A DNA stretch of 27,026 nt, from the IMG/VR virus record IMGVR_UViG_2690316099_000006, one strand, 5' to 3'. Positions 1 to 26,056 of the stretch are shown here, one piece after another (position 1 is the stretch's first letter; each line of letters begins with the position of its first letter). The translations under genes and the position numbers were made by a program. The stretch comes from a virus (Duplodnaviria; Heunggongvirae; Uroviricota; Caudoviricetes). Below the pieces are notes generated by a model. That model was not told the origin of the DNA. It saw nothing but the letters and a program-made list of their open reading frames with translations, and ran no database searches.

Positions 1-27
1 AAACCTCGGTTTACAGGAAACGGTAAA
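1..27 (+). other. Gin/Pin-family crossover site copy (gix/pix-like), truncated by window edge
   Basis: AAACCTCGGTTTACAGGAAACGGTAAA at the start of tail-fibre cassette 1. Positions 3-27 are the exact reverse complement of 4534-4558. Resembles the Mu gix half-site as I recall it (..AAACCTCGGTTTACAGGAA). Confidence 0.5.
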
Positions 28-1118
28 CAAGGCTGGTAACGCCGTGCAAAAAAATGGCGATACGTTGTCCGGTGGACTTACTTTTGAAAACGACTCAATC
101 CTTGCCTGGATTCGAAATACTGACTGGGCAAAGATTGGGTTTAAAAATAATTCGGATGCAGACACCGATTCCTACATGTGGTTTGAAACAGGCAACAACG
201 GCAATGAATATTTCAAATGGAGACACCGCATCATTGGCACCCGGCCTAAAGACCTGATGAATCTTAAATGGAATGCTTTGTCTGTTCTTGTTGAAGCCCT
301 TTTCAGCAGTGAAGTGAAAATATCGACAGTCAATGCACTGAGGATATTTAATTCATCTTTTGGTGCCATTTTTCGTCGTTCTGAAGAATGCCTGCATATC
401 ATCCCTACACGAGAGAATGAAGGGGAAAATGGTAATATAGGGCCACTACGCCCCTTTACGCTTAATCTCAGAACTGGCCGGATAAGCATGGGGCATGGTC
501 TTGATGTTACAGGGGATATATTTGCAAACCGTTTTGNNNNNNNNNNNNNNNNNNNNNNNNNNNNNNNNNNNNNNNNNNNNNNNNNNNNNNNNNNNNNNNN
601 NNNNNNNNNNNNNNNNNNNNNNNNNNNNNNNNNNNNNNNNNNNNNNNNNNNNNNNNNNNNNNNNNNNNNNNNNNNNNNNNNNNNNNNNNNNNNNNNNNNN
701 NNNNNNNNNNNNNNNNNNNNNNNNNNNNNNNNNNNNNNNNNNNNNNNNNNNNNNNNNNNNNNNNNNNNNNNNNNNNNNNNNNNNNNNNNNNNNNNNNNNN
801 NNNNNNNNNNNNNNNNNNNNNNNNNNNNNNNNNNNNNNNNNNNNNNNNNNNNNNNNNNNNNNNNNNNNNNNNNNNNNNNNNNNNNNNNNNNNNNNNNNNN
901 NNNNNNNNNNNNNNNNNNNNNNNNNNNNNNNNNNNNNNNNNNNNNNNNNNNNNNNNNNNNNNNAAACATGGAATTTTCAGTGCCCGTCAGGCTATGTACT
1001 GACGGGGATTAACGTACAGGATACCGGAAAAAACTCTGCCGATAATATTGCAGGCGTTCATTACAGGCCAGTGCAAAAGTATATAAATGGCACTTGGTAT
1101 AATGTGGCGAGTATTTAA
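2..1118 (+). CDS. H: Tail fibre protein C-terminal variable cassette 1 (P2 gpH C-terminal homologue); 5-prime end outside window, interior 537-963 masked
   Basis: Frame from position 2 translates [47 protein letters not shown]..., matching the P2 H region after residue ~400. It ends ...[17 protein letters not shown] at stop 1116-1118, like the P2 H C-terminus. Confidence 0.8.
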
Positions 1119-1119
1119 T

Positions 1120-1647
1120 ATGATGCACTTAAAGAACATAAAAGCAGGTAATGCTAAAACAGTGGAGCAGTATGAGTTAACAAAGAAGCACGGAGTCATC
1201 TGGCTTTACTCTGAGGACGGAAAAAACTGGTATGAGGAAGTGAAGAACTTTCAGCCAGACACAATAAAGATTGTTTACGATGCAAATAATATTATTGTCG
1301 CCATCACCAAAGATGCCTCCACGCTTAACCCTGAAGGTTATAGCGTCGTTGAGGTTCCTGATATTACAGCTAATCGTCGTGCTGATGATTCCGGTAAGTG
1401 GATGTTTAAGGACGGAGCTGTGGTTAAACGGATTTATACGGCTGACGAACAGCAACAACAGGCCGAATCACAAAAGGCCGCATTGCTTTCCGAAGCTGAA
1501 TCAGTCATCCAGCCGCTGGAACGCGCTGTCAGGCTGAATATGGCGACGGACGAGGAACGCACACGACTGGAAGCATGGGAACGCTACAGTGTTCTGGTCA
1601 GCCGTGTGGATACGGCAAAGCCAGAATGGCCACAAAAGCCTGAGTAA
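1120..1647 (+). CDS. G: Tail fibre assembly chaperone (P2 gpG-like) for cassette 1
   Basis: [23 protein letters not shown]...[52 protein letters not shown]... is near-identical to P2 G as recalled. Start sits 2 nt after the cassette stop. Confidence 0.9.
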
Positions 1648-1652
1648 AAATT

Positions 1653-1672
1653 AAGGCCCGATATCGGGCCTT
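1653..1672. terminator. Perfect 20-bp palindrome AAGGCCCGATATCGGGCCTT between convergent chaperone genes; candidate bidirectional terminator
   Basis: Lies between the stop of G (1647) and the stop of the minus-strand chaperone (1676), flanked by A/T-rich sequence. Confidence 0.5.
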
Positions 1673-1675
1673 GTT

Positions 1676-2209
1676 TCATTCTGGTTGTTCGGGAAACGTT
1701 ACTGGCAGGCTGGAGGTGTCTGTGGATTCGACCTTCTGCGCATAGAGCATCCACTCGGTTAATTTTTGTTTATTCTCGTCGGAAATAATGCCCAGCCGTA
1801 GCTGTGAGTCCCATAGCTGGGTTTTATCCCTGACGAGCTGTAGCAGGCTTTGCTTTTCATTTTCCGCTTGTTGCCTCTGCTCTTCCCCGGTATAAGTTCG
1901 CTTTATCACTACGCCATCTTTGAACATCCATTTACCTGAAATATCAGCCCGGCGATTTGCTGTAATATCAGGAACCTCAACGACGCTTGCGCCTTCCGGA
2001 TTAATTGCTGAAACATCCTTTTCAATACAAATAATAACGCCGTTGTGGTCATAGACCATTTTCAACGTATCAGGCTGAAAGTTCTTTTGTTCCTCATACC
2101 AGTTTTTCCCATCCTCTGTATAAAGCCATTTGATGTTAAATTGTTTCGTTAGCTGGTATTGCTCTTTTGTTTCAGGATTACCAGCAGAAATGTTTTTTAA
2201 GTGCATCAT
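1676..2209 (-). CDS. Tail fibre assembly chaperone (second, divergent allele) for cassette 2
   Basis: MMHLKNISAGNPETKEQYQLTKQ...[41 protein letters not shown]... has the same N-terminal and core motifs as G with a divergent C-terminus. Convergent with G. Confidence 0.9.
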   Translation of the reverse strand: MMHLKNISAGNPETKEQYQLTKQFNIKWLYTEDGKNWYEEQKNFQPDTLKMVYDHNGVIICIEKDVSAINPEGASVVEVPDITANRRADISGKWMFKDGVVIKRTYTGEEQRQQAENEKQSLLQLVRDKTQLWDSQLRLGIISDENKQKLTEWMLYAQKVESTDTSSLPVTFPEQPE

Positions 2210-2211
2210 CG

Positions 2212-3748
2212 TTAAATACTCCCCGCGTTATACCACGTCCCATTAATGCAATACTGAATTGGCCTTGCCTGAGTTGTATCAATTAGTTCATCTCTGTTTG
2301 AGTTAACGGAACCGGTAACAACATAACCTGACCTGTCAGACCATCCGGGACCATTCCATGTCTGAACAGATAACAGACCACCAAGGCGAATACCTGTAAT
2401 AAACCTTGAGTTACATTCTGCCTGCGTATATGCACCAACATCTCCCGCAGAGGGTTTGCGGGTTGTGGTGTAAAACTCTGACCAGTCAGCTTCAAAGCCA
2501 TAACCATCACGCGCTGAACGATAAAAAATACCNNNNNNNNNNNNNNNNNNNNNNNNNNNNNNNNNNNNCCGTTCCTGTAATTCACGCGGAACTGTACAGC
2601 AGGGCAGCTCCCCGTATTCATATTGAAGTGGAGGATTAATGTCGATGCGCCACCAATGTTTGCGTTATAGACCCCGCTATTCCAGTTCCAGCCAACAGCT
2701 TTATCATTTCCGACAGTGCTTCCTGTTTGCCCNNNNNNNNNNNNNNNNNNNNNNNNNNNNNNNNNNNNNNNNNNNNNNNNNNNNNNNNNNNNNNNNNNNN
2801 NNNNNNNNNNNNNNNNNNNNNNNNNNNNNNNNNNNNNNNNNNNNNNNNNNNNNNNNNNNNNNNNNNNNNNNNNNNNNNNNNNNNNNNNNNNNNNNNNNNN
2901 NNNNNNNNNNNNNNNNNNNNNNNNNNNNNNNNNNNNNNNNNNNNNNNNNNNNNNNNNNNNNNNNNNNNNNNNNNNNNNNNNNNNNNNNNNNNNNNNNNNN
3001 NNNNNNNNNNNNNNNNNNNNNNNNNNNNNNNNNNNNNNNNNNNNNNNNNNNNNNNNNNNNNNNNNNNNNNNNNNNNNNNNNNNNNNNNNNNNNNNNNNNN
3101 NNNNNNNNNNNNNNNNNNNNNNNNNNNNNNNNNNNNNNNNNNNNNNNNNNNNNNNNNNNNNNNNNNNNNNNNNNNNNNNNNNNNNNNNNNNNNNNNNNNN
3201 NNNNNNNNNNNNNNNNNNNNNNNNNNNNNNNNNNNNNNNNNNNNNNNNNNNNNNNNNNNNNNNNNNNNNNNNNNNNNNNNNNNNNNNNNNNNNNNNNNNN
3301 NNNNNNNNNNNNNNNNNNNNNNNNNNNNNNNNNNNNNNNNNNNNNNNNNNNNNNNNNNNNNNNNNNNNNNNNNNNNNNNNNNNNNNNNNNNNNNNNNNNN
3401 NNNNNNNNNNNNNNNNNNNNNNNNNNNNNNNNNNNNNNNNNNNNNNNNNNNNNNNNNNNNNNNNNNNNNNNNNNNNNNNNNNNNNNNNNNNNNNNNNNNN
3501 NNNNNNNNNNNNNNNNNNNNNNNNNNNNNNNNNNNNNNNNNNNNNNNNNNNNNNNNNNNNNNNNNNNNNNNNNNNNNNNNNNNNNNNNNNNNNNNNNNNN
3601 NNNNNNNNNNNNNNNNNNNNNNNNNNNNNNNNNNNNATTTTGGCCCCGTGGCTGACAGATATAGCACCTGTTCTCAGATTTATAGCGAATGGCCTTAATG
3701 GGCCGATATTACCGTTTTCGCCTTGTCCTTCAGCCGTCGGAATGAAAT
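2212..3748 (-). CDS. Tail fibre C-terminal variable cassette 2 (inverted, promoterless); upstream limit hidden in mask 3749-4074
   Basis: Hand translation of the minus strand 2532 to 2212 gives ...GYVVTGSVNSNRDELIDTTQARPIQYCINGTWYNAGSI with a stop at 2212-2214. Further upstream, 3637-3748 encodes [36 protein letters not shown], parallel to [27 protein letters not shown] in cassette 1. The reading frame changes across masked blocks. Confidence 0.7.
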
Positions 3749-4076
3749 NNNNNNNNNNNNNNNNNNNNNNNNNNNNNNNNNNNNNNNNNNNNNNNNNNNN
3801 NNNNNNNNNNNNNNNNNNNNNNNNNNNNNNNNNNNNNNNNNNNNNNNNNNNNNNNNNNNNNNNNNNNNNNNNNNNNNNNNNNNNNNNNNNNNNNNNNNNN
3901 NNNNNNNNNNNNNNNNNNNNNNNNNNNNNNNNNNNNNNNNNNNNNNNNNNNNNNNNNNNNNNNNNNNNNNNNNNNNNNNNNNNNNNNNNNNNNNNNNNNN
4001 NNNNNNNNNNNNNNNNNNNNNNNNNNNNNNNNNNNNNNNNNNNNNNNNNNNNNNNNNNNNNNNNNNNNNNNNNNAT

Positions 4077-4155
4077 GAACAAATATTTGAAGATAAATTA
4101 AGCGGAACAAGGACAGGCCGACCTGGATTAAAACGTGCTTTAAAGCGCCTTCAAA
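4077..4155 (+). CDS. Serine DNA invertase (Gin/Pin/Cin/Hin family), visible N-terminal segment only; start estimated near 3996 inside the mask, 3-prime part masked or absent
   Basis: Plus frame gives EQIFEDKLSGTRTGRPGLKRALKRLQ, near-identical to Gin/Pin residues ~28-53 as recalled (EQIFEDKLSGTRTDRPGLKRALKRLQ). Confidence 0.75.
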
Positions 4156-4447
4156 NNNNNNNNNNNNNNNNNNNNNNNNNNNNNNNNNNNNNNNNNNNNN
4201 NNNNNNNNNNNNNNNNNNNNNNNNNNNNNNNNNNNNNNNNNNNNNNNNNNNNNNNNNNNNNNNNNNNNNNNNNNNNNNNNNNNNNNNNNNNNNNNNNNNN
4301 NNNNNNNNNNNNNNNNNNNNNNNNNNNNNNNNNNNNNNNNNNNNNNNNNNNNNNNNNNNNNNNNNNNNNNNNNNNNNNNNNNNNNNNNNNNNNNNNNNNN
4401 NNNNNNNNNNNNNNNNNNNNNNNNNNNNNNNNNNNNNNNNNNNNNNN

Positions 4448-5567
4448 GGCAGGCACCAATATTTTTGGTGAAGGTATCTTTCCCCGGAATATCTGCGCCG
4501 TTCTGGTTTTTCTGTAATGCGCCAGAAGCCTGATTTACCGTTTCCTGTAAACCGAGGTATTCGATAACGGCGGCAACGGTCGATTTCGCAAGAATATCCC
4601 GCCCGACTTTTGTCAGGGTTGCCAGGCTGGCGACATCATTCCCCGTAAAATACGGAAACCTGTCTGCCGCAGTAGCAAGCCCCGCCAGCGCCGTCAGAGT
4701 GGCATCTTTCGGTTGCTTACCCGCAAGCGCGTTAGTCATGGTGGTCGCAAAATTCGGGTCGTTGCCCAGCGCCGCCGCCAGCTCGTTCAGTGTGTTCAGT
4801 GCATCAGGCGAAGAGTCTACAAGTGCGGCAATCGCAGCCATAACGAAAGCCGTGCTTGCGATTTGGGTATTATTCGTTCCCTGTCGCGCAGTTGGTGTTG
4901 TTGGCGTTCCGGTCAGTGCCGGGCTGTTTAATGGGGCTTTCTTGTTCGTTTCATCCATTACTGCCTTAACGGCTTTTGGTGTCGCTGCCAGCGTTTCAGA
5001 CGTGCTGTTGGTGGCGTTGCTGAGCTGGACAAGGCCTTTTGCGGTCAGCGAGGCGTCCGGGTGACGTCGTGACTGTTCATGCTCTTTCAGTTTGTCATCC
5101 ACGTAATTCACTGTGGCCATCACCATGGTGTTATCCACGGTAAGCGCCACAGTGGCAGTGCTGGATACGGTCAGAATGGTGCGAAATGTTTGTGCACGTC
5201 CGGATCCTTCGGCAACGGTTGGCTTGTAACTTTCGGCAGTATTGCCTACCGCGATCAAATCGCCGTGCTCATCAAACACACCAATTTCCCGGATCCAGAA
5301 TCCGCCCGTTTCAGGAGGAATAACCAGCTCCGCAATAATGTGGTTCTGATGTGTTGCGTCCAGGGTGACGCGATTAACGGTATGTCGCCACACCTCATGC
5401 ACAAGACGGGTCTGCTTACTGTCTGGCGTGGGTAAAGTACCGCCGCCGTCACCCACGGCCATATGTGTCAGGCGGACAGGTTTCCCATCTGGCGCGGTTG
5501 CCTGCGCTAATTTTTTTGCACCCGTATCGGTGATAATGGTTTTAAATTTTCGTGTTGTGGTACTCAT
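4448..5567 (-). CDS. H: Tail fibre protein H, N-terminal constant region plus crossover junction; 3-prime end hidden in mask 4156-4447
   Basis: MSTTTRKFKTIITDTGAKKLAQATAPDGKPVRLTHMAVGDGGG...SETLAATPKAVKAVMDETNKKAPLNSPALTGTPTTPTARQGTNNTQIA...[14 protein letters not shown] matches P2 H closely. After ETVN it diverges into QASGALQKNQNGADIPGKDTFTKNIGAC. Confidence 0.85.
4542..4567 (-). other. Gin/Pin-family crossover site (gix/pix-like) inside H at the constant/variable junction
   Basis: Plus strand TTCCTGTAAACCGAGGTATTCGATAA; minus strand reads TTATCGAATACCTCGGTTTACAGGAA, an imperfect 26-bp dyad close to the gix consensus as I recall it. It encodes VIEYLGLQE. Inverted relative to the copy at 1-27. 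Confidence 0.6.
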
Positions 5568-5569
5568 GC

Positions 5570-6133
5570 TTAATCGTCCGGATAAATGGTAATGACTTCA
5601 CCGTCGTAAGTTGCTGCTGCCGCGAAAATATCTCCCTGAATCTCCTGAATGATATTCAGCCCTGTCATGTGGCGGCTGACCGGGCGGGCATCAGCAATCA
5701 ACCGCTCCATTTCCAGATACATTTCCTCCGTCACGCCACTGTCCAGCGTGCCAACATCAATCTTGAATGTTCCGGGTTCGCCGTTGAACTCCCACCACTC
5801 AGACACGCGAATGAGGTATCCCAGCGGCTCAATGGCCCGTCGCAGGGCGCTGATGGTTCCTTTGTGTCGGTGTATCAGCCATGCATCACGAATCACCTGT
5901 CGCTTTGTCTCTTCCGGCCAGTTGCGATCCCAGCGGTCAACGGAAAACGCCCAGGCGAGATAAGGCAGCAGATGCACCGGGCAGGTGTCCGGCGACCACA
6001 GCGTGTTGAGGTCTGCCGGAATGTCTGTAATGCGTGTTCCGACGGCTTCGGCACAACGCATGAAATTGCTGGCTGATGGTGGTAACAGTGAATTACTCAT
6101 TACGCCCACCTTCGCTGATGGTGAATGACTCAC
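5570..6133 (-). CDS. I: Baseplate assembly protein (P2 gpI-like)
   Basis: 187-aa ORF immediately upstream of H; position and size fit P2 I. Confidence 0.8.
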   Translation of the reverse strand: MSHSPSAKVGVMSNSLLPPSASNFMRCAEAVGTRITDIPADLNTLWSPDTCPVHLLPYLAWAFSVDRWDRNWPEETKRQVIRDAWLIHRHKGTISALRRAIEPLGYLIRVSEWWEFNGEPGTFKIDVGTLDSGVTEEMYLEMERLIADARPVSRHMTGLNIIQEIQGDIFAAAATYDGEVITIYPDD

Positions 6134-6989
6134 AGCGCGCCGCCTGTATGTCGCTGATGGCCATATTCTGTGTGGGTTCGATTATCTCCACGCGTTGCAC
6201 ACCGTGCACATGCAGTGCGGCAGCAATGGCGGACAACGCCACGTCCTGACCGATAAGCCCCTGCTCAGCCAGCCACTTCCTGAACGACGATTCAGCCGCA
6301 GCCAGAATAGGTTCGGATTCCGGACCGGGGTAAAAGTACAGTTTTGCATTCAGCCGCCATGTCACGATTCTGGCACTCTGTACGGTCAGGCGGTCGGCCA
6401 CCGGGCGGGTATCCTCTGCATTCAGAACGGCGCGAACGGTATTAAGCAACGCCTCCGTTGCTGTGCCGTCGCCCTCAGTGGACAGGATGGAAACCGTCAC
6501 ATTTGCCGGAGACGGACTGATGGCCCGCGCATCGCGCACCAGACCGCTGGCGCTGCGGGCAAAATACTCGTATGCGCCTGACGGGCCTGCAACACTCAGG
6601 CCGTCATACGCCCGCTGCGCCCGCAGTCTCAGCGAGGTGTCGTTCTCCATCACCACGTCGGTGGTATCCGTTGCCGGAGTGATAACCAGGCGCTTTGTGT
6701 TCATATTGCCCGCGAGGTTGTCCAGGTCTGTTCCGGCGCTGTGGCTCAACATGCAGGCGCGTGCGGCCTCATTGACCCGCTGGCGTAACAGCATTTCACG
6801 AAACGACATGGTTTGAGCGATAACGTTCAGGGGTTCCGATTCCAGTTCCAGTGCGGCGGAGACGACTTCACGCTGTTCGGCGGGATAAGCTGCAATCATC
6901 ATGGCCTTTGTGTCAGCCAGAATTGCCTCAAAGTCAGGCTCCGCGATGATGGCGGGTTCCGGTAACTGGGAAAGGTCAACGGCAGGCAT
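6093..6989 (-). CDS. J: Baseplate protein J
   Basis: 298 aa. MPAVDLSQLPEP...RQRVNEAARA...GLSVAGPSGAYEYFARSA...RPVADRLTVQSA...YFYPGPESEPI... matches P2 J. Confidence 0.85.
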   Translation of the reverse strand: MPAVDLSQLPEPAIIAEPDFEAILADTKAMMIAAYPAEQREVVSAALELESEPLNVIAQTMSFREMLLRQRVNEAARACMLSHSAGTDLDNLAGNMNTKRLVITPATDTTDVVMENDTSLRLRAQRAYDGLSVAGPSGAYEYFARSASGLVRDARAISPSPANVTVSILSTEGDGTATEALLNTVRAVLNAEDTRPVADRLTVQSARIVTWRLNAKLYFYPGPESEPILAAAESSFRKWLAEQGLIGQDVALSAIAAALHVHGVQRVEIIEPTQNMAISDIQAARCESFTISEGGRNE

Positions 6990-6992
6990 GAT

Positions 6993-7343
6993 TTACTCCC
7001 TCAGCGTGATGGTTAATTCAACATTCTGCATGGTCTGCATGACAGTGCCCGACAGCGTCACCCCGGCGTGGCCTCCTGCCTTCCAGACAACGTCGATGGC
7101 GTTCAGGGCAATGCGTGGTTCCCATCGTGTCAGTGCAATCACGGTAGCACTCATGCATTGCAGACGCGTGGTGTTATTCATGGGTTCGTCAATCAAATCA
7201 GGCACAAGGCTGCCATATTCCCGTCGCATAACCCGGCTTGCCAGCGGGGTGGTCAGGATGTCCCTGACTGACTGTTTCAGGTGCGCCATATCGTTCAGGT
7301 TTCCCGTCCCGTCCGGGTTCATTCCTGTGTAGCGGGTTGTCAC
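6993..7343 (-). CDS. W: Baseplate wedge protein W (gp25-like)
   Basis: 116 aa, position between V and J, size equals P2 W. Confidence 0.8.
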   Translation of the reverse strand: MTTRYTGMNPDGTGNLNDMAHLKQSVRDILTTPLASRVMRREYGSLVPDLIDEPMNNTTRLQCMSATVIALTRWEPRIALNAIDVVWKAGGHAGVTLSGTVMQTMQNVELTITLRE

Positions 7344-7921
7344 TGCGGGCCTCCTGTCGAATCGCTGCCACCTTTAACGCCACCGTGCTTATGCGTATGC
7401 ACTGTGATGCCGTTTGAGGTGAAATCGCCGCCGCTGTGCGTGATATTGCCGCTCATCGTTCCCCCTTTTGTGACGTCAAGCGTCGCTGTTCTCAGAAGGT
7501 CTGTGCATTCCACGACAGGCGTGTTCAGTGTCACGCTGATGGATGCCTGCAAAGTGGCCGTTTTCATGCCGCTTGCGCTCAGTGCGCCTGCGTCCGCGTC
7601 GTAGCGGAACACCGCGCCGTCCGGCGCGCTGACCACGATTTCTTTCAGGCTTTTGCCGGGTGCCGGAATGGCATCACTCCACAGGCTGCCGATTATCATG
7701 GCGGTTTCCGGGTTGCCGCCGATGCAGGCAATTGCCACCTGTTCGCCTGGTGATGGCGGAAACCACACGTTGAAGTCTCCCGCGCGCGTGGTGTTCCAGC
7801 GCAGCCAGCCTGTTTCCAGTTCGCCGCTGCGAACGCGCACGCACCAGGATTCCTCATCAACTTCAGAGATGATCCCGGTGCGGATGATATTGCTCAGCAG
7901 TCGCATGAGTTCTGCGCTCAT
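7340..7921 (-). CDS. V: Baseplate spike/hub protein V
   Basis: ...IRTGIISEVDEE...RVRSGELETGWLRW...VTKGGTMSGNITHSGGDFTSNGITVHTHKHGG... matches P2 V (..QKGGTMRGNIEHTGGELSSNGKVLHTHKH..). Confidence 0.85.
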   Translation of the reverse strand: MSAELMRLLSNIIRTGIISEVDEESWCVRVRSGELETGWLRWNTTRAGDFNVWFPPSPGEQVAIACIGGNPETAMIIGSLWSDAIPAPGKSLKEIVVSAPDGAVFRYDADAGALSASGMKTATLQASISVTLNTPVVECTDLLRTATLDVTKGGTMSGNITHSGGDFTSNGITVHTHKHGGVKGGSDSTGGPQ

Positions 7922-8458
7922 CGTACAGCCTCCGCAATCCGGCCCAGCACCGTGTTATAAATCAGGCGCTCATCTGCCTGGCTGATACCCAGCAGCTCAC
8001 GTACCGGGTAATCGGTGAAAATGCCCGGCGCAACCTGATCGCGCTCACCGAACTGATGAACGCGTGCAATACGTGCGGCCACGCCGCTGTAACCCACCGT
8101 CACACCGGAAGCATCTGCACGGGCTTTCAGGTAGCGGGCGGTGCGCAGTTTTACGAACATGGAGACGCGCCTGGTGCTGTCCTGGTTGATGCGCCGGGTG
8201 CGTATTTCCAGAAAACGGTCGATGTCATCCCGGTAAAACGTGCGGATATTGTTTTTATCCTCATCCCACCCGGTGATGGTTCGCCCGTATTTCCCCGTGT
8301 CGTGATGCCAGTTTTTCAGCGTGCGTGCTTCGTTATTCCAGATAAAGCGAATGCGCTCCTGTATCCGGGTTACGCGGCGTCTGCGTGGTGTCCATGCGGT
8401 CCCGTCCGGCGCTTTCTGTGACCGGATACGCGCCTGCTGGGCGCGGCGTAAATCCTGT
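7918..8458 (-). CDS. S: Tail completion / virion morphogenesis protein (P2 gpS-like); 5-prime end in mask, where gene R is presumably also hidden
   Basis: Minus frame is open from the mask edge to the stop at 7918. Position between V and the lysis genes matches P2 S/R. Family assignment is by synteny more than sequence. Confidence 0.5.
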
Positions 8459-9243
8459 NNNNNNNNNNNNNNNNNNNNNNNNNNNNNNNNNNNNNNNNNN
8501 NNNNNNNNNNNNNNNNNNNNNNNNNNNNNNNNNNNNNNNNNNNNNNNNNNNNNNNNNNNNNNNNNNNNNNNNNNNNNNNNNNNNNNNNNNNNNNNNNNNN
8601 NNNNNNNNNNNNNNNNNNNNNNNNNNNNNNNNNNNNNNNNNNNNNNNNNNNNNNNNNNNNNNNNNNNNNNNNNNNNNNNNNNNNNNNNNNNNNNNNNNNN
8701 NNNNNNNNNNNNNNNNNNNNNNNNNNNNNNNNNNNNNNNNNNNNNNNNNNNNNNNNNNNNNNNNNNNNNNNNNNNNNNNNNNNNNNNNNNNNNNNNNNNN
8801 NNNNNNNNNNNNNNNNNNNNNNNNNNNNNNNNNNNNNNNNNNNNNNNNNNNNNNNNNNNNNNNNNNNNNNNNNNNNNNNNNNNNNNNNNNNNNNNNNNNN
8901 NNNNNNNNNNNNNNNNNNNNNNNNNNNNNNNNNNNNNNNNNNNNNNNNNNNNNNNNNNNNNNNNNNNNNNNNNNNNNNNNNNNNNNNNNNNNNNNNNNNN
9001 NNNNNNNNNNNNNNNNNNNNNNNNNNNNNNNNNNNNNNNNNNNNNNNNNNNNNNNNNNNNNNNNNNNNNNNNNNNNNNNNNNNNNNNNNNNNNNNNNNNN
9101 NNNNNNNNNNNNNNNNNNNNNNNNNNNNNNNNNNNNNNNNNNNNNNNNNNNNNNNNNNNNNNNNNNNNNNNNNNNNNNNNNNNNNNNNNNNNNNNNNNNN
9201 NNNNNNNNNNNNNNNNNNNNNNNNNNTGGCCCGCTTATCGGCG

Positions 9244-9717
9244 TTACAGGTTTCCAGTGCGTCCATGAGGCTGTCGCTCCATATCCCGATGTTTCCCCAT
9301 GATGGCGTCACCGGAAACGGCGGGGGAAGTACGGGGGCGGTCAGCCCTTCCGGGATGAAACGGAACGACGGCGGCGGCGCGGACGCGTTCTGCGTGCTGG
9401 TGCAACCGCTCAGTAAAGCGAGCGTCAGGAACAGCGCGGGCACATGCATCTGTCGTGATATCGTTGCGTAGCTGTTCACGTCGGATTTCCCCTTCCTGTT
9501 GTCGGTTCTGGCGCGCTGTCATGACGTCACGCAGTACACCGGATGCGGTGCTGATGATGGTGCCGGCCTCTTTCAGGGTCCGGCTGTAATCGTCCAGTTG
9601 CGCCTGTGTATAACGGTTGTGTCCGTCTTCCTGCCCCAGTCTGAATGTCTGCCAGAGTGTTATGGTCAGCAGCGTGAGGACGGTCAGTGCCATCATCAGG
9701 ATGTAACGCACTTTCAT
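9244..9717 (-). CDS. lysB: Inner-membrane spanin (Rz/LysB-like); 3-prime end runs into mask
   Basis: N-terminal TM segment ILMMALTVLTLLTITLW followed by a charged, likely coiled-coil region. Start overlaps the endolysin stop. Confidence 0.65.
   Translation of the reverse strand: MKVRYILMMALTVLTLLTITLWQTFRLGQEDGHNRYTQAQLDDYSRTLKEAGTIISTASGVLRDVMTARQNRQQEGEIRREQLRNDITTDACARAVPDARFTERLHQHAERVRAAAVVPFHPGRADRPRTSPAVSGDAIMGKHRDMERQPHGRTGNL
9247..9479 (-). CDS. lysC: Outer-membrane spanin lipoprotein (Rz1/LysC-like), visible N-terminal part; 3-prime end masked
   Basis: MNSYATISRQMHVPALFLTLALLSGCTSTQNASAPPPSF... has a signal peptide with an LSGC lipobox and a proline-rich body. It starts inside the i-spanin gene in another frame and extends past it. 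Confidence 0.6.
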
Positions 9718-10262
9718 GACTGGCCTCCGGTGTCACGTAAGCACCATGCACGAAAATCAGTACGACGGTTAACCAGTCCCTGTGAGCGTTCGCCGCCGCT
9801 GTTCACGAAGTCAGTCAGTCTGTTGCACATGTCAGGCCAGTTGTGCGCCTGTGCATGTTTCCAGATAGTGGTGCGGTGGTAGTTACGGTTCTTATCCCTG
9901 AACCACATAAGATTTCTGCATCCAAGATTAAAGGCGGCATCTGTCATTGCCTCAAACGCGGACTGTGGCATGGCGTTGCCGCTGAAGTTCTGATTTATGC
10001 AGTTTTCTGCATGTTGCATATCATTAACCCAGCGCCCGGCGACTTCCGTTTCGGTGTACAGACGATTTTCCACATGCCCGGTCGAGCCGCACCCCACGGT
10101 CATTACCCCGGCAATATCCCGGTAAGGCGTTGCGCGACAGTCCTCCCATGTGGCAATGCGGATTTGCGCTTCCGGGCTGGTCCGGAGTTTGTGAGGGGCA
10201 ATGGAGAACCCCAGCGCCACAATGGCGGCTACGGCGTAACGTTTAACGGGCAGCTTTATCAT
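9714..10262 (-). CDS. SAR endolysin (T4-lysozyme fold; P1 Lyz / phage 21 R type)
   Basis: N-terminal signal-anchor KRYAVAAIVALGFSIAP, then ENCINQNFSGNAMPQSAFEAMTDAAFNLGC and CNRLTDFVNSGG, matching P1 Lyz (ERCINQHFRGKDMPDNAFSAMTSAAFNMGC ... CNHLPDFVNSNG) as recalled. Confidence 0.85.
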   Translation of the reverse strand: MIKLPVKRYAVAAIVALGFSIAPHKLRTSPEAQIRIATWEDCRATPYRDIAGVMTVGCGSTGHVENRLYTETEVAGRWVNDMQHAENCINQNFSGNAMPQSAFEAMTDAAFNLGCRNLMWFRDKNRNYHRTTIWKHAQAHNWPDMCNRLTDFVNSGGERSQGLVNRRTDFRAWCLRDTGGQS

Positions 10263-10545
10263 GTGTATCGTTATCCCGCAGAATGTTCAGAGCCTGACGC
10301 TCACTGTCGTGAAGTGGCCGTGCGTCTGACTGCGCCAGGATACTGGCGATGAGTTCATTGCGACGCTGCATGGCGGTTTCCATCAGGCGGCGATGTCGCC
10401 AGGCATGTAATGCAGACAGAGAACCGAGTAACAACCCGGCAAGGGCGATTTTTTCACTGATGGTCATCACGCCTATTGTGGTGGCTGTGACTGATGCCCA
10501 GAAGGTGATCCAGTCACTCACCCGCTGAAAAAAACCTGTTACCAT
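10243..10545 (-). CDS. Holin, two predicted TM segments (pinholin-like)
   Basis: 100 aa from the internal ATG at 10545: MVTGFFQRVSDWITFWASVTATTIGVMTISEKIALAGLLLGSLSALHAW..., two hydrophobic helices and a charged C-terminus, directly upstream of the SAR endolysin. The longer listed ORF (to 10752) has an implausible N-terminus. Confidence 0.6.
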   Translation of the reverse strand: MVTGFFQRVSDWITFWASVTATTIGVMTISEKIALAGLLLGSLSALHAWRHRRLMETAMQRRNELIASILAQSDARPLHDSERQALNILRDNDTHDKAAR

Positions 10546-10736
10546 AGCTGTATCATCTCTCGTTGTTTTTTCTTCTCCGGCTCCGGCATTTCCACCTCCT
10601 GTCCGGCTTCCAGAAATACCTGTCGGCAGAGTCCGGGGTTGGCATCCAGCACCTTTTCGGTGACGCCCTGCGTCGTGCCGTAGTACCGGAAACAGAGCGA
10701 ATCCACGGTGTCGCCTTCCAGTGTCTTCACTTTCAT
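10539..10736 (-). CDS. X: Tail protein X (LysM-like)
   Basis: MKVKTLEGDTVDSLCFRYYGTTQGVTEKVLDANPGL... matches P2 X (MKTFALQGDTLDAICVRYYGRTEGVVETVLAANPGL...). Start taken at the internal ATG. Confidence 0.8.
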   Translation of the reverse strand: MKVKTLEGDTVDSLCFRYYGTTQGVTEKVLDANPGLCRQVFLEAGQEVEMPEPEKKKQREMIQLW

Positions 10737-11308
10737 CAGCACAACTCCGCAAAGATTCGCGGGCGGCACAGAATGTCAGAGATGGCCCAGCTCACATCGC
10801 GCCACAAATCCGATGTCTGTATATCCAGTGCGTCCGCCCGGCGGTCGCCCTTGTCCGTTGTGTCCGCATCGCGGTAACGCTCCAGAATCAGGGCGCGTGT
10901 GGCGGTATAAACAGCATTGCGCCAGTGCCAGAGATTGACGCTTTCTCCGTTAATTACAGGTGCCGGAACATCGGCCAGCGTCTGATGGCCNNNNNNNNNN
11001 NNNNNNNNNNNNNNNNNNNNNNNNNNNNNNNNNNNNNNNNNNNNNNNNNNNNNNNNNNNNNNNNNNNNNNNNNNNNNNNNNNNNNNNNNNNNNNNNNNNN
11101 NNNNNNNNNNNNNNNNNNNNNNNNNNNNNNNNNNNNNNNNNNNNNNNNNNNNNNNNNNNNNNNNNNNNNNNNNNNNNNNNNNNNNNNNNNNNNNNNNNNN
11201 NNNNNNNNNNNNNNNNNNNNNNNNNNNNNNNNNNNNNNNNNNNNNNNNNNNNNNNNNNNNNNNNNNNNNNNNNNNNNNNNNNNNNNNNNNNNNNNNNNNN
11301 NNNNNCAT
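10736..11308 (-). CDS. L: Head completion protein L (interior 10991-11305 masked)
   Basis: Visible C-terminal half plus position between M and X. Start is ATG at 11308 or GTG at 11317. Confidence 0.6.
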   Translation of the reverse strand: MXXXXXXXXXXXXXXXXXXXXXXXXXXXXXXXXXXXXXXXXXXXXXXXXXXXXXXXXXXXXXXXXXXXXXXXXXXXXXXXXXXXXXXXXXXXXXXXXXXXXXXXXXGHQTLADVPAPVINGESVNLWHWRNAVYTATRALILERYRDADTTDKGDRRADALDIQTSDLWRDVSWAISDILCRPRIFAELC

Positions 11309-11409
11309 GGGGTTCACTCCTGAAAAAATCGGGCGGTGGGTGCGCGGTGTAAACGGTCACGGAGCCAAACCGGAACACCGCGCACGCCGCCCGCTGACGG
11401 GGTCAGTCG

Positions 11410-12210
11410 TTAACCGCGCTTCGCCTTCTGCGTCGCGGTGGTTTTTCGTGTTGCAGGCTTCCGCGTTGTCTTTTTACTTTCGCTGCTTTCGTCCTGCGCC
11501 TGCTGTGCGCTGGCGTCTTCTGGTGCGGCTGCGGAATCGGCTTTTTTCAGGGCGCGGGAAAGGGTTGCAATCTCGCGTTTCACACCTGCGTTCTGGTTCA
11601 GATGCATCGCTTCGCGCAGCAGCTTCAGTGATGAGGCCATGCTGTCCGCATCGCTCAGGCCACGGCGGGCAAAGGCGCACGCCTTGCATAATTTGGCGCG
11701 CACTTCGTCCGGCATATCCTGGTTGGCGACAATTTCCCAAAGTGTGTCCAGTGGTTCGATAAAGACGGACAAATCCGCGTCGGCATCCGTCCCGGCCTGC
11801 GTCAGTACCGGATTGCAGATTTCTTCGGTCAGCACTGTGGCAGCAGTACGGCCAAAGTTATCCGGCATGATGAGGTTGTGACGGACCGCATACGCACCAA
11901 TACGCAGCGCAAGCGGAAGATCGCCGCAGTCAATCGCCCACACCATCAGCGTGGCAATCACTTCGTCCTGTTGCCCGCCGTCAGCCTCCAGCGTTCCCTC
12001 AATCCAGCCGGAAAAGTCCGGCAACAACGCTTTTTTGATGTCGGCTTTCGCGCTTCTGGCCTGTACGCCCTTAAGCCGGGCCTGTGCCAGACGCAGACGA
12101 TACAGCACCTCTTCATGCGCGGTACGCGCGGCGTGGTCCACACCTTCATTCGCCCGGCCTGCGCGCTGTGCCATCACGTTCTGCCAGTGTTGCTGTGCAG
12201 GAGTAATCAT
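11410..12210 (-). CDS. M: Terminase endonuclease (small) subunit M
   Basis: 266 aa; contains ...QDMPDEVRAKLCKACAFARRG... matching P2 M (ADMPDEVRAKLHKITGLFLRDG) and a basic C-terminal tail as in P2 M. Confidence 0.85.
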   Translation of the reverse strand: MITPAQQHWQNVMAQRAGRANEGVDHAARTAHEEVLYRLRLAQARLKGVQARSAKADIKKALLPDFSGWIEGTLEADGGQQDEVIATLMVWAIDCGDLPLALRIGAYAVRHNLIMPDNFGRTAATVLTEEICNPVLTQAGTDADADLSVFIEPLDTLWEIVANQDMPDEVRAKLCKACAFARRGLSDADSMASSLKLLREAMHLNQNAGVKREIATLSRALKKADSAAAPEDASAQQAQDESSESKKTTRKPATRKTTATQKAKRG

Positions 12211-12255
12211 TTTTTCTCTCCGTTACAGGCGGGCATGATGCCCGCCGTGAGTTGA

Positions 12256-13308
12256 TTAGCTGTCGGCGAACTTCAGGCCAGTGACCATCGCGCACTTGCC
12301 ATAGTCTTCAACGACATAAGCGTCATTGATGGACTGGTAGGTGGCGATGCGGTTGTATTCCGGTTCGTCTTTCATCAGACGACGCATTGAACCTTTCTGC
12401 CAGTAAATCGACAGGTTGTTGAATGAGGTGATCAGCATCGTTGCATCCGGGAAGAACGGTGCAAGGAACACACCCAGCCCGCCAATGGTGCGCGATGACA
12501 GGATGAGCTGCCCGGCAAGTAATTCCGCATTGGGATTCTGGCCGCTGATGCTGTTCAGCACTGGCAGACGCAGCGAGTTAAACAGGTTGCGCCCCATAAT
12601 CACCACGAGGTCGTCAGCTTCCTTGTGCCATTCATCCAGCAGAGATGAGCGCGCGTCCTGTACCAGTGCATCAGGGTTCGCGTATTTACCCGCGTGCGCC
12701 ACGGTGTTGTCCATGTTGCGGGAAGTCAGCGTCACGTCATTCATTACGCGCTCGCTGGCATTGGTTCTGATGTGCTCCAGCCACCCCACGTTAACGTCCT
12801 GAAGCAGCTTGTTGGTGCTGAAGTTGGACTCATCCGCGTGAGATGTGCCGTTGAAACCGATCATGATGCGGTCAAGTGCCACCTGTCGGGCAATCTGTGC
12901 GCTGATGCGGGACTGAAAATCGCTGTGTGCCGACCAGGCATCAAGCTGCGGATACGAAATAAACGTGTCGTAGTTCACCTGTTCGCACTGGTATTTGCGG
13001 TTTTTCAGATCAACCACGTTATTCGGGTTACGGCGTTTTGTTCCGTCATAACTGGTATTTGTGCGTGCAATCGGTCCTGTGGTGTCCAGGAGGATTTTTT
13101 CGCCTTTCTGGTCGGTCACGCCGATCACGTTAATTTTTTTTGTAAGTTCGGTGCTATCCTTTGAGGCGTTTTCAAAACGTTGCTGCACCGCAGGTTCCAC
13201 GGTAAATCGCGATACCAGTGCAGAAACCGGGATATTGTTAAGCGACGCCTGCTGCGCCATATAGCAACCCAGCTTGTTGCGGGTAATATCTGACATCACC
13301 AGATTCAT
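12256..13308 (-). CDS. N: Major capsid protein N
   Basis: 350 aa. ...RFTVEPAVQQ...KYQCEQVNYDTFISYPQLDAW...IMIGFNGTSHA...LQDVNVGWL...DLVVIMGRNLF...ATMLITSFNNLSIYWQ... matches P2 N. AAGGAG lies 10 nt upstream of the ATG at 13308. Confidence 0.9.
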   Translation of the reverse strand: MNLVMSDITRNKLGCYMAQQASLNNIPVSALVSRFTVEPAVQQRFENASKDSTELTKKINVIGVTDQKGEKILLDTTGPIARTNTSYDGTKRRNPNNVVDLKNRKYQCEQVNYDTFISYPQLDAWSAHSDFQSRISAQIARQVALDRIMIGFNGTSHADESNFSTNKLLQDVNVGWLEHIRTNASERVMNDVTLTSRNMDNTVAHAGKYANPDALVQDARSSLLDEWHKEADDLVVIMGRNLFNSLRLPVLNSISGQNPNAELLAGQLILSSRTIGGLGVFLAPFFPDATMLITSFNNLSIYWQKGSMRRLMKDEPEYNRIATYQSINDAYVVEDYGKCAMVTGLKFADS

Positions 13309-13331
13309 AAAAAATTTGCTCCTTTGTCTTA

Positions 13332-14168
13332 TCAGAAGTCAGCCAGCTGGTCGGAGGCTGCGCCCGTTGCGGTGAACCGGTTCTGCGGATCGCCGTCCTG
13401 CGTGCGCAGTTTTTCCTTCAGTGCTGTCAGCTCCGTGGTCAGTAAAGTGATTTTCTGGCTGTCCTGCTGATGGCGTGTTTCCAGCGCATTAAAACGGTCG
13501 ATAATGTCGGCCTGTGACGTTGCGACGCTTTCCACCGCTTCCTGAATACGGGAGAAACTGGCGTCATCCGCTTTGCGGCCACGACCAATAATCCCCATTA
13601 CGCGGTTAAACCACTGGGTGCCTTCTTCCTGGCGTTGTTCTGCCATTTCGATGATTTCAGACTCGATGGCTTCGGAGATAAGCGGTGCTTCACCCTGGAT
13701 ACTGTTGAACGTCATCACCGCCTGACGTTGCTGTGCCGTGAATTTCAGGCGCTCAGTGCCCAGGCTTGCCGGGGTGTCGGTCATCGCCAGCCCGACCAGA
13801 TAGGCGCGCCCGTTAACGGAGAACTGCGGGTGCAGTTCGATACTGGAATAGATTTTCTTGCCGTCCGCGACAAGCTGCTTCATGCGCTCGGTCGGTTCGA
13901 TTTCTGCATACAGCGCAGTACGTCCGGCCAGCGGACCTTCCGTAATGTCTTCCGTACTCAGTGCGGTGACATCGCCCATTGCGGAAAATTCGCTTGACGG
14001 GCATGGCGAGAGATAGTGCTCAACGTTCACGCGGGCAGCGTAAACATCCGGGTTGAAGTTCTCGGCGGCTTCACGCAGATGCACCGGACTGATTTCACGG
14101 CCATCAACAGTTGATCCGGAGACAGCCACGCGAAACTTTTTGCGGGATGTCTTTTTTTCATTAGCCAT
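13332..14168 (-). CDS. O: Capsid scaffolding protein O
   Basis: From the internal ATG at 14168: MANEKKTSRKKFRVAVSGSTVDGREISPVHLREAAENFNP... matches P2 O (MAKKVSKFFRIGVEGDTCDGRVISAQDIQEMAETFDP...). Also ...AYLVGLAMTDTPASLGTE... Confidence 0.85.
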   Translation of the reverse strand: MANEKKTSRKKFRVAVSGSTVDGREISPVHLREAAENFNPDVYAARVNVEHYLSPCPSSEFSAMGDVTALSTEDITEGPLAGRTALYAEIEPTERMKQLVADGKKIYSSIELHPQFSVNGRAYLVGLAMTDTPASLGTERLKFTAQQRQAVMTFNSIQGEAPLISEAIESEIIEMAEQRQEEGTQWFNRVMGIIGRGRKADDASFSRIQEAVESVATSQADIIDRFNALETRHQQDSQKITLLTTELTALKEKLRTQDGDPQNRFTATGAASDQLADF

Positions 14169-14322
14169 AGTTTTTGCCCCTCTGACTGGTTCTTCAGTCA
14201 TGATGGCAAAGCGTAACAGGCTGATACAAAGGGCTTTTGTTGTAAGAAAACGGCCAGAACAGGGGGTTAAGGAGAACGGTTTCGCGCGCGGGTAATCTTC
14301 CTGTAATTACTCAGGGGGAGCA
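14169..14322. promoter_or_regulatory. Divergent late-promoter region between O (minus) and P (plus)
   Basis: 154-bp intergenic region between divergently transcribed O and P operons, as in P2 where Ogr-activated promoters sit here. It contains the partial dyad ACAAAGGGCTTTTGTTGT, but I could not place a clean TGT-N12-ACA box. Confidence 0.45.
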
Positions 14323-17712: not shown

Positions 17713-17752
17713 TTTATAAAATCAACTAAAAAACACCTAGTGTGACTTACCT

Positions 17753-17938
17753 CTACCACTCGATCGGCACGTAGTCATTAAGTTCCGGAGACCAATTGCA
17801 CTTTTCACATCTGTGTTTTCCATTCTGGCAGATACATAAACGATAACGGCCACAATGCGGGCACCCATTTTCACCATTATCATAATCACCGAGCGACCAT
17901 TCCTGCATAAGCAGCTCTTCTTCATCATCATTTAGCAT
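17753..17938 (-). CDS. Small Cys-rich zinc-ribbon protein (hypothetical), last gene of accessory operon
   Basis: 61 aa with CPHC...C.C...C..C spacing and an acidic N-terminus (NDDEEELL). Confidence 0.45.
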   Translation of the reverse strand: MLNDDEEELLMQEWSLGDYDNGENGCPHCGRYRLCICQNGKHRCEKCNWSPELNDYVPIEW

Positions 17939-17952
17939 TAATCCCCCTTGAG

Positions 17953-18192
17953 CTATTTACTCTTCTCGGCCCTCAAAATCATACGAGAACCATCATCCAG
18001 CTCCCAATTAATTTCACCGCCTTCTGCCATGACTAGATGCCAAACGAGTTGAGCGGCCTCGTTGGTTACATCGCGACCGCGATCATTTCCTACGCGGCGT
18101 TTTGTTCCGTCTCCTAAGTCACGCATTTTTGCCAATACGATGGTTTTTGATAGCGGTGAAAAACCAAGCTGTAGTCGTGCTGAATTACTCAC
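17953..18192 (-). CDS. Hypothetical protein (79 aa), accessory operon
   Basis: ORF whose start overlaps the upstream gene stop (18189/18192), suggesting translational coupling. No family recognised. Confidence 0.45.
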   Translation of the reverse strand: MSNSARLQLGFSPLSKTIVLAKMRDLGDGTKRRVGNDRGRDVTNEAAQLVWHLVMAEGGEINWELDDGSRMILRAEKSK

Positions 18193-18590
18193 TGGCTGCC
18201 CCCTTTGTACTGTGTTAACTCTTCCTGCTCCTGCATCATGCGATTGACCTGAACGCGTGTGCGTCGAACGGCAAAATTAAATTGAAACATGAGCCGGAAC
18301 ATTTCTGATGCTTCCGTGTGAGCATCACGGATAGGTGACAGGCGGTACAGTTCTGCCTCCGTAGCTTGTTGAATCAATGACAGATCAAATTGAAGTGCGG
18401 GTCTGGTACATTTTGCACATCTGGCAGCAAGCTCCGGTATTAGTCTCTTAACGAAGGTGTTTTGCACCGCTTTGTTGATTTGTGTCTGCATCCAAATCGC
18501 AAATTTCAGCGAACGCATAAGTTTGATAGCCTCGGGCAGCGGCAGATAGATCATGCTGGTAGATTTGGGTGGTTGGTGAACCATCTTCAC
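18189..18590 (-). CDS. Hypothetical protein (133 aa), accessory operon
   Basis: ORF immediately after masked block 18622-19260, same strand as the ParM-like gene. No family recognised. Confidence 0.45.
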   Translation of the reverse strand: MKMVHQPPKSTSMIYLPLPEAIKLMRSLKFAIWMQTQINKAVQNTFVKRLIPELAARCAKCTRPALQFDLSLIQQATEAELYRLSPIRDAHTEASEMFRLMFQFNFAVRRTRVQVNRMMQEQEELTQYKGGSQ

Positions 18591-26007: not shown

Positions 26008-26056
26008 TCATGGAACGCTGGGGGCATGGTGGTCTTGTAACGCTGGGGCTTCACGA

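Follow-up and report, generated by a model that had tools for sequence, protein, structure and literature searches.

A probable Mu G-type invertible host-range segment at the tail-fibre gene of a P88-like prophage

The left end of the window (the whole stretch of DNA that was analysed, 27,026 nucleotides) carries two tail-fibre cassettes, each with its own chaperone gene, that converge on a terminator-like palindrome; next to them lies the constant part of a tail-fibre gene H (Table 1). The preliminary description of this DNA had placed cassette 1 with its chaperone on the plus strand and a second chaperone on the minus strand, and the similarity of cassette 1 to Mu S and the Caudo_TAP domains of both chaperones bear this out. 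The chaperone of cassette 1 also matches PDB 5yvq_B (E 5e-102), 5YVQ being the solved complex of Mu S and U. The palindrome is predicted to act as a terminator on either strand, in agreement with the convergence proposed earlier, and the motif INGTWYN closes both cassettes as described (1083-1103 on the plus strand and 2227-2247 on the minus strand).

Table 1. Features of the tail-fibre region and of the right part of the window (a full stop in the strand column: no strand assigned)
Feature	Position	Strand	Evidence or description
Left (invertase-proximal) gix-like crossover site, truncated where the window begins	1-27	.	AAACC at 1-5, core TC at 6-7, inner half-site GGTTTACAGGAA at 8-19
Cassette 1, alternative tail-fibre C-terminal part, predicted silent (Mu Sv-like)	2-1118	+	66% amino acid identity to Mu S residues 167-503
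Tail-fibre assembly chaperone of cassette 1 (Mu U homologue)	1120-1647	+	Pfam Caudo_TAP, E 2.5e-37
Bidirectional intrinsic-terminator-like palindrome, G+C-rich, between the convergent chaperone genes	1652-1673	.	Stem of 8-9 pairs, T-runs on both strands
Tail-fibre assembly chaperone of cassette 2 (Mu U' homologue)	1676-2209	-	Pfam Caudo_TAP, E 7.1e-37; 97.7% amino acid identity to Mu U'
Cassette 2, C-terminal part predicted to be expressed now (Mu S'v-like)	2212-4541	-	Fused in frame to H
Island with a second 11-residue block (block at 3687-3719), piece of a cassette of a third type (casX)	3637-3748	-	Lambdoid Stf invertible locus
Island with codons 28-54 of a Gin-type invertase, 81 nucleotides	4075-4155	+	Truncated recombinase remnant of a lambdoid locus
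Right (H-proximal) gix-like crossover site, within the H frame (codons ...EYLGLQETV...)	4542-4567	.	TTCCTGTAAACC-GA-GGTATTCGATAA
Tail-fibre gene H, constant N-terminal part (P2 type), outside the invertible segment	4556-5567	-	Pfam Phage_tail_fib E 2e-54, Phage_fiber_2 E 2e-20
Repressor HTH and integrase N-terminal domain	25696-26692		

The H gene is confirmed as P2-type by its two Pfam domains; it starts at 5567 on the minus strand, its constant part has 93-94% nucleotide identity to H of phage P88, and the genes I, J, W and V come after it. The limits previously given for cassette 2 were wrong: it does not end at 3748, but extends from 2212 to the right crossover site and is in frame with H, although it is readable only at 2212-2532, 2569-2732 and 4448-4541. 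In the orientation of the window, H and cassette 2 form an in-frame fusion, which has 656 amino acids in the relatives L005 and L020; inversion of the segment in silico fuses H in frame to cassette 1, and this fusion has 678 amino acids in the relative L008.

Inverted copies of a crossover site had been reported alongside the cassettes, and both are present, the left one lacking its outer 7 nucleotides at the window start. The site architecture is that of two 12-bp half-sites around an asymmetric 2-bp core (TC/GA), 26 bp in all, and aligns base for base with Mu gix: the full left site is TTATCTAAAACC-TC-GGTTTACAGGAA in identical relatives and TTATCCAAAACC-TC-GGTTTACAGGAA in Mu. The inverted repeat is exact over 25 nucleotides (3-27 versus 4534-4558) and 81% complementary over 52 nucleotides, far beyond chance. 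Only two crossover sites are readable in the window, where the N-run at 3749-4074 is the one place that might conceal a third, and no third site was found in any near-identical relative; a shufflon-like locus of the type of Min of p15B or of EPEC has at least three.

G-type segments have been a textbook example of host-range switching since about 1980, and the preliminary description had likened the locus to the Mu G segment and the e14 P region, acting here on a P2-type H. Homology, the in-frame fusions and the presence of both isomers in relatives support this. When aligned to the Mu G segment with gin, the window segment shows about 92% DNA identity; identities are 95% to SfMu and 92.7% to P88, with further matches in D108 and in the C segments of P7 and P1. 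Mu, and also D108 and SfMu, have the same order of site, Sv, U, terminator, U', S'v and site, with the invertase just outside. At the protein level, identity between cassette 2 and Mu S'v is 96.9% over 325 amino acids, and the chaperone of cassette 1 is 90% identical to Mu U. The crossover sites, core included, are almost the same as in Mu. Differences to Mu are found in cassette 1, which is far less similar to Sv than the other parts are to their counterparts, in the outer half-sites (1-3 positions) and in the constant part, which is Sc in Mu and a P2-type H (336 amino acids, Phage_tail_fib N-terminal domain) here; moreover, Mu is a transposable phage, while the window is from a P2-family prophage. 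The C segment of P1 and P7 (Cin) and the P region of e14 (Pin) belong to the same family of invertases and sites and have homologous cassettes (identity over parts of the segment is 92.5% for P7 and 90% for P1), but their constant parts and host elements differ and the e14 region is the remnant of a defective prophage.

Gene order in the window is of the P2 type (Q P O N M L X, lysis, R S V W J I H; early region, C repressor and integrase), and outside the segment nucleotide identity to phage P88 is 95-98% across those structural and replication genes that could be matched. P88 (Xuanwuvirus, Peduoviridae) and many P88-like prophages of E. coli share this backbone, with the same succession of H, segment, invertase, gpU and tape measure. 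P88 differs in several respects: it was deposited in the orientation that joins H to cassette 1, its H is longer (764 amino acids), its cassettes are 90-92% identical to those of the window, and its lysis module has an M15 peptidase, whereas the window and its close relatives have a lysozyme. Inversion is not discussed in the P88 paper. Our reading, to which we assign a probability of about 0.9, is that positions 1-4570 constitute an invertible segment for host range, directly homologous to the G segment of Mu, in a P88-like prophage (Xuanwuvirus, P2 family). To our knowledge, classic P2 has no such invertible segment, and to this extent the earlier statement on P2 stands; however, P88, a phage of the P2 family, is in GenBank with exactly this arrangement.

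Relatives in both orientations are available for comparison. An exact search with window positions 1-120 had no match in genome_contigs and matched two IMG/VR contigs, which were used as key relatives. Among the near-identical prophages (99.9-100%), six have H joined to cassette 2 as in the window (L020, L022, L026, L028, L029 and L005) and four are of the opposite isomer (L008, L021, L024 and L025), with flanks unchanged between the isomers. Contigs with an identical U' are divided likewise, five having H joined to cassette 2 and four having H joined to cassette 1. A synthetic inverted junction matches E. coli FDAARGOS_943 with 100.0% identity over 1064 nucleotides, and this genome has the same prophage (99.8-100%) in the other orientation; an intact invertase of 195 amino acids adjoins the segment there. 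A survey of complete E. coli genomes found the junction of H with cassette 1 in 310 genomes and that of H with cassette 2 in 69. The presence of both isomers in near-identical prophages is strong comparative evidence that the segment inverts.

Tail-fibre modules are exchanged among P2, Mu, P1 and lambdoid phages, and the mosaic identities of the locus fit such exchange; the convergent cassette-chaperone pairs could then be a static fossil of transfer from Mu-like phages that inverts nowhere. We consider this extremely improbable, as it is contradicted by the two isomers among prophages of 99.9-100% identity and by relatives in which all open reading frames, both sites and the invertase gene are intact, the first 240 nucleotides of the latter being 97% identical to Mu gin (in L008). 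Goldberg et al. (2014) showed experimentally, by sequencing and PCR, that the fibre C-termini invert at loci of P2-like prophages in EPEC E2348/69 and that clonal cultures contain both orientations at once (PMC4272514). One of these loci has three repeats and four variants, while only two sites are supported here. The segment of the window is real, ordinary and already known, and its novelty is low. The novelty implied in the preliminary description finds no support, and the biological addition is small: the P2-family arrangement is deposited with P88, it is present in hundreds of complete E. coli genomes, and inversion in P2-like prophages has already been demonstrated and measured (PMC4272514).

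In six relatives (L006, L008, L020, L022, L024 and L029) a gene of 195 amino acids begins 51-62 nucleotides beyond the left site. Resolvase and HTH_7 domains are recognised in its product, which shares 85.6% amino acid identity with Gin and 98.5% with the invertase of P88. From the sequences of these relatives, the prophage's own invertase is predicted to lie to the left of window position 1. The invertase segment that had been described alongside the cassettes (4075-4155) is not the invertase of the switch, but matches another, lambdoid locus. We had also considered this piece as the 5' part of a full gene at 3996-4577; this was rejected, as 4448-4577 consists of cassette 2 and the crossover site.

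This piece is one of two short islands between N-runs, and these runs are not true to length: with flanks that are 100% identical, the lengths in window and relatives are 427 and 339 (the run at 537-963, which breaks cassette 1 in the window, while its frame is kept in the identical relatives), 36 and 1, 768 and 609, 315 and 237, and about 317 and 226. The N-run lengths break the reading frames of both cassettes. Same-length masking was rejected, as lengths differ between identical flanks and frames are broken; the N-runs may be scaffold gaps, gaps of a reference-guided consensus, or masks of altered length. The 1715 positions of 2733-4447 correspond to 365 nucleotides of cassette 2 in relatives that are 100% identical at all visible bases, including all nine contigs with identical U', and the distance from crossover site to stop of cassette 2 is about 975 nucleotides in identical relatives versus 2330 in the window. 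The casX island within this part is 100% identical to L006 2702-2813 and 99.1% identical to L004 6001-6112 of E. coli EC958; the invertase island is 100% identical to L004 2957-3037 of EC958, where it lies within a pseudogene of 180 nucleotides, and 93.75% identical to the P88-type invertase. The islands are absent from the matching position in all 11 close relatives examined, eight of which are 99.9-100% identical. The extra 1350 positions and the two islands in 2733-4447 are most likely foreign here and look like pieces of a second, lambdoid invertible locus that entered by gap-filling or scaffolding: the casX island is probably misplaced or foreign to the locus, and the invertase piece probably does not belong at its position in the window.

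If the islands were real, the stretch from the C-terminal part of cassette 2 to H would also contain casX, a third site concealed by the N-run 3749-4074 and a truncated second copy of the invertase, in a partly decayed multi-site locus. Their orientation and spacing suit a Mu-like unit of cassette (minus), site and invertase (plus), with about 298 nucleotides expected versus 326 N; the larger N-runs are about 1.26-1.4 times the real lengths and thus non-random; and a P2-like prophage shufflon with three sites is known in EPEC (PMC4272514). We nevertheless regard such a locus as quite unlikely: close relatives (L005, L006, L008, L020-L022 and L024-L029) have exactly 365 nucleotides and no island, the islands match a different, lambdoid locus with 99-100% identity, and the N-run lengths disrupt the frames of otherwise intact genes. 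Searches with window positions 3637-4700 and 4075-4700 found the invertase island beside the junction of cassette 2 and H in none of 5426 complete E. coli genomes, and scans for a gapped pattern linking this island to cassette 2 found none in viral_contigs or genome_contigs. Moreover, inversion could not fuse casX to H, since the hidden site and the H-proximal site would be direct repeats; and with genuine N-runs and islands in 2733-4447, H in the orientation of the window would lack a fusion to a complete cassette 2. The Fis-dependent recombinational enhancer of such systems sits in the 5' part of the invertase gene. It is very unlikely that the N-runs hide a real third cassette with its own site and a truncated invertase copy that retains the enhancer region, as a three-site locus derived from exchange with a lambdoid Stf locus.

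The N-proximal block that the preliminary description saw in both cassettes is not shared: the real cassette 2, of the Mu S'v type, has no such block. Anatomy that is read across the N-runs, like this block or an invertase inside the segment, is unreliable because the runs are not length-true and the short islands between them can derive from paralogous invertible loci; the practical value of the window lies in this caution.

For the P88-like segment with two sites, the following course of events is proposed. The late operon transcript V-W-J-I-H would cover the constant part of H from 5567 to 4556 on the minus strand, cross the right site and read through into the facing cassette and its own chaperone, to stop at the central bidirectional terminator. 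In the state of the window, H, cassette 2 and U' would be read, with cassette 1 and U in the opposite orientation and silent. A serine invertase of the Gin family, encoded just outside the left site, would pair the two inverted 26-bp sites and flip the segment of about 3 kb; in the flipped state, H would be in frame with cassette 1, followed by U, and particles would have a different receptor-binding tip. Catalysis by the invertase, dependence on Fis and the enhancer, and the change of host range are what we infer from the biology of Mu.

The left site of the window copy itself may be modified, because the window starts at most 1 nucleotide from the IS600 junction of L005, L026 and L028. In these three relatives, of which L005 is the closest in the same orientation, IS600 is inserted in the outer half-site of the left crossover site. 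The odd left flank of L005 had been considered as a third constant region, which was rejected: it is the end of IS600. The insertion, or loss of the invertase, could have locked the switch in the state with H joined to cassette 2: a start this close to the junction is what a contig broken at an IS element typically shows, and the hybrid outer half-site ACACCTCAAACC matches the consensus at about 7-8 of 12 positions, the TTAT part being lost. We consider such a lock unlikely. L026, L028 and L005 have the same insertion (same nucleotide, same orientation, same 3-bp duplication AAC) next to cassette 1, and L021 and L025 have it next to cassette 2, which indicates most simply that inversion still happened after the insertion, and the invertase gene is intact 130 nucleotides past the IS in the copies that carry IS600. 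The occurrence of IS600 at one identical nucleotide of a crossover site in both isomers may be of interest to recombination specialists.

Two tail-fibre cassettes, each followed by its own chaperone gene, converge on a palindromic terminator, enclosed by inverted crossover sites and adjoining an H-type gene (see table). This basic observation of the preliminary description stands and is supported by the readable bases, the Caudo_TAP matches, the terminator score and the repeat: positions 3-27 are exactly repeated, in inverse orientation, at 4534-4558, and over 52 nt the two ends are 81% complementary. Both crossover sites can be aligned base for base to gix of phage Mu; the left, invertase-proximal site is truncated in the window and whole in relatives (TTATCTAAAACC-TC-...). 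The reading frame of H continues into the N-run at 4156-4447.

Features of the invertible segment, of the region between portal and ParM-like genes, and N-runs whose lengths are at odds with relatives or P88
Feature	Position	Strand	Remarks
Left crossover site	1-19		AAACC-TC-GGTTTACAGGAA; outer seven bases lost to the window start
Cassette 1 open frame	from 2, stop ends at 1118	+	broken by N-run 537-963
Chaperone gene, 175 aa	1120-1647	+	Caudo_TAP tail-fibre assembly protein, E 2.5e-37
G+C-rich palindrome between both chaperone genes	1652-1673		terminator score in both directions
Chaperone gene, 177 aa	1676-2209	-	Caudo_TAP tail-fibre assembly protein, E 7e-37
Cassette 2 frame, upstream of the 177-aa gene	ends at 2212	-	ends with ...QYCINGTWYNAGSI and stop
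Right crossover site	4542-4567		TTCCTGTAAACC-GA-GGTATTCGATAA
H-type gene	start 5567	-	P2-type Phage_tail_fib N-terminal domain and Phage_fiber_2 repeat
ORF with DUF7446	17953-18192
ORF without Pfam match	18189-18590
N-runs	537-963, 2533-2568, 2733-3636, 3749-4074, 4156-4447, 8459-9226		lengths at odds
N-runs, further	10991-11305, 14658-14728, 14788-15337, 21460-21491, 26695-27011		lengths at odds

The window contains 13 N-runs, five of them within 1-4567. Eleven close relatives were recovered, eight of them 99.9-100% identical: the IMG/VR contigs L005 and L006, E. coli FDAARGOS_943 as a complete genome (L008), and eight NCBI assemblies whose U' chaperone is identical (given as L020-L022 and L024-L029); the same U' also occurs on a ninth contig, L023, but in another prophage context. 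Across 1-8458 the readable bases agree with these relatives to 99.9-100%, whereas the gap lengths disagree: the run of 427 N corresponds to 339 nt, the run of 36 N to a single nucleotide and the 1715 positions of 2733-4447 to 365 nt, a stretch in which L005, L006 and L008 do not differ. Later N-runs differ too, both from relatives (768/609, 315/237 and about 317/226 for window/relatives) and from phage P88 (550/407, 32/10 and 71/73). Measured against identical or near-identical relatives, the larger runs are too long throughout, about 1.26-1.4x. They may be scaffold gaps, gaps in a reference-guided consensus or masks of altered length. As the N-run lengths differ from the real ones, frames read across them are meaningless: both cassettes are frameshifted under the literal lengths and intact under the real ones.

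The earlier reading as a Mu G-segment-style switch is correct in outline: positions 1-4570 align to the Mu G segment plus gin with about 92% nucleotide identity, and also match D108, SfMu (95%), the C segments of P7 and P1, and P88 (92.7%). For protein comparisons, N-runs were bridged with relatives whose sequence agrees 100% with the readable bases. Over 325 aa, cassette 2 has 96.9% identity to Mu S'v, and its chaperone is 97.7% identical to Mu U'; the other pair is more distant, with 90.3% identity to Mu U and only 66% to Mu Sv for cassette 1. Structures have been solved for Mu S with U (5YVQ) and for an S/S' construct (8JU3). Every testable feature of the family, whether in the window or in identical relatives, is present, and the locus is predicted from sequence to function like the Mu G segment.

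It also belongs to the P88-like prophage group. Outside 1-4570 the window is 95-98% identical to P88, a phage of the P2 family (Xuanwuvirus), with the annotated order H, chaperone, chaperone, tail-fibre fragment, DNA invertase, gpU, tape measure. Classic P2 is not known to have such a segment. P2-family phages carrying it are, however, already deposited and common, and the same prophage is found at 99.9-100% identity in public complete genomes. The switch described in the preliminary description is real and correctly interpreted in outline, but already known, and three anatomical details were wrong.

Judged from relatives, the invertase gene lies to the left of position 1 in window coordinates: L006, L008, L020, L022, L024 and L029 have an intact gene of 195 aa that starts 51-62 nt past the left site and points away from the segment. 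The protein has Resolvase and HTH_7 domains, and its identity is 98.5% with the invertase of P88 and 85.6% with Gin; the first 240 nt of the gene are 97% identical to gin. In Mu, the first part of gin contains the Fis-dependent enhancer.

The inverted junction was built in silico by joining the constant part of H via the site to cassette 1. The junction is in frame, and the synthetic sequence of 1064 nt has a 100.0% match in E. coli FDAARGOS_943, which carries the same prophage (99.8-100% over window 4527-14537) with the segment reversed and the places of H and invertase unchanged. Among assemblies with identical U', five have H joined to cassette 2 as in the window (L020, L022, L026, L028, L029) and four have H joined to cassette 1 (L021, L024, L025, L027); the TC core is the exact point of exchange between the isomers. 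Among complete E. coli genomes, 310 have a junction of the H-cassette 1 type and 69 one of the H-cassette 2 type. Comparison across the lineage, rather than of the source strain, thus strongly indicates that this prophage lineage inverts the segment. Inversion in two P2-like prophages of EPEC was demonstrated by sequencing and PCR (Goldberg et al. 2014, PMC4272514), and one of these prophages has three repeats and four variants.

In the proposed mechanism, late-operon transcription would pass from H through the H-proximal site into the cassette that faces H, continue over the accompanying chaperone gene and end at the central terminator, while the opposite pair would stay silent, presumably, as in Mu, for want of its own promoter upstream. 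Together with Fis and a putative enhancer, the Gin-family invertase would swap strands at the 2-bp core of the inverted sites; as the segment flips, the distal half of the fibre would be exchanged. The window shows the state that corresponds to Mu G(-), and its products are S'v-like and U'-like.

Two short readable islands within 2733-4447 do not fit this anatomy. The 'shared N-proximal block' ascribed to cassette 2 sits in island 3637-3748, and the real cassette 2 is of the Mu S'v type and lacks it; the island is 100% identical to casX, a third cassette in the left part of L006, and 99.1% identical to a cassette of E. coli EC958 that is joined to a lambdoid gene with a 'prophage tail fiber N-terminal domain'. 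The invertase piece inside 1-4567 is island 4075-4155, which covers codons 28-54 of Gin. Its 100% match lies in a 180-nt pseudogene, a truncated recombinase, in the same EC958 locus as the casX-type cassette; identity to the prophage's own invertase is only 93.75%. A full invertase gene around it would span 3996-4577 and cannot fit, because 4448-4570 is already cassette 2 plus crossover site.

Neither island is found at this position in any near-identical relative, and none of 5426 complete E. coli genomes has the invertase island joined to the cassette 2/H junction. The islands likely originate, as far as their matches tell, from another invertible locus in the same genome, one of lambdoid type, and were probably placed here by the assembly procedure; the lambdoid locus and this one have the same crossover site, and they are alike in the final 500 nt of the constant part (92-97%) and in much of U' (98.9%). 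That the islands are really in place is unlikely, and so is a rearranged three-site locus. Were they real, the concealed third site would repeat the H-proximal one in direct orientation, and no complete cassette would be joined to H in the present orientation, which would make this a decayed locus rather than a richer switch.

The lambdoid locus itself, on an Stf-type gene, is seen at L006 1-3140 and at 2937-6740 of the EC958 locus (L004); it has the same crossover site, its cassettes include casX, and its truncated recombinase keeps the region equivalent to the gin enhancer. L006 is a scaffold whose pieces meet at a single N within U'. The shared end of the constant part (window 4527-5030, compared with Stf of EC958) puts the boundary of the tail-fibre exchange module well upstream of the crossover site.

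In L005, the 62 nt left of the site (7236-7297) are the right end of IS600. This element (1264 bp) interrupts the outer half-site on the invertase side, always at one identical nucleotide, in several of the 99.9-100% identical prophages: L005, L026 and L028, with H joined to cassette 2, and L021 and L025, with H joined to cassette 1 (for example L026 9122-10385; L021 4772-6035); the L028 copy is internally deleted (511 bp). Orientation and 3-bp duplication (AAC) are the same in all: ...TTATCTAAAAC[IS600]AACC-TC-GGTTTACAGGAA. Either recombination still takes place at the hybrid site, with the invertase gene 1.26 kb further off, or IS600 struck the same base twice (a hot spot); two unrelated IS600 copies with flanks resembling the left-site sequence hint at a target preference. 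The window start (AAACCTCGG) is within 1 nt of the IS600 junction, so the source may carry IS600 too and the contig may simply end at the repeat.

In the rest of the prophage, the lysis region (8459-10547) does not align to P88, whose endolysin is an M15 peptidase; in its place, near-identical relatives have a Phage_lysozyme gene, a swapped module in comparison with P88. At the end for immunity and integration (25322-27026) are an HTH_3 repressor (25696-26007), an integrase from 26057 and a divergent small ORF without Pfam match (25322-25600). The window ends inside the integrase gene, 15 nt beyond an N-run; this terminal 15-mer is one base off the L005/L011 contig, indicating that the window comes from another, closely related genome. 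Also without alignment to P88 is 17715-19260, which lies between the portal gene and a ParM-like gene, is partly covered by N-run 18622-19260 and is possibly a cargo or hot-spot region.
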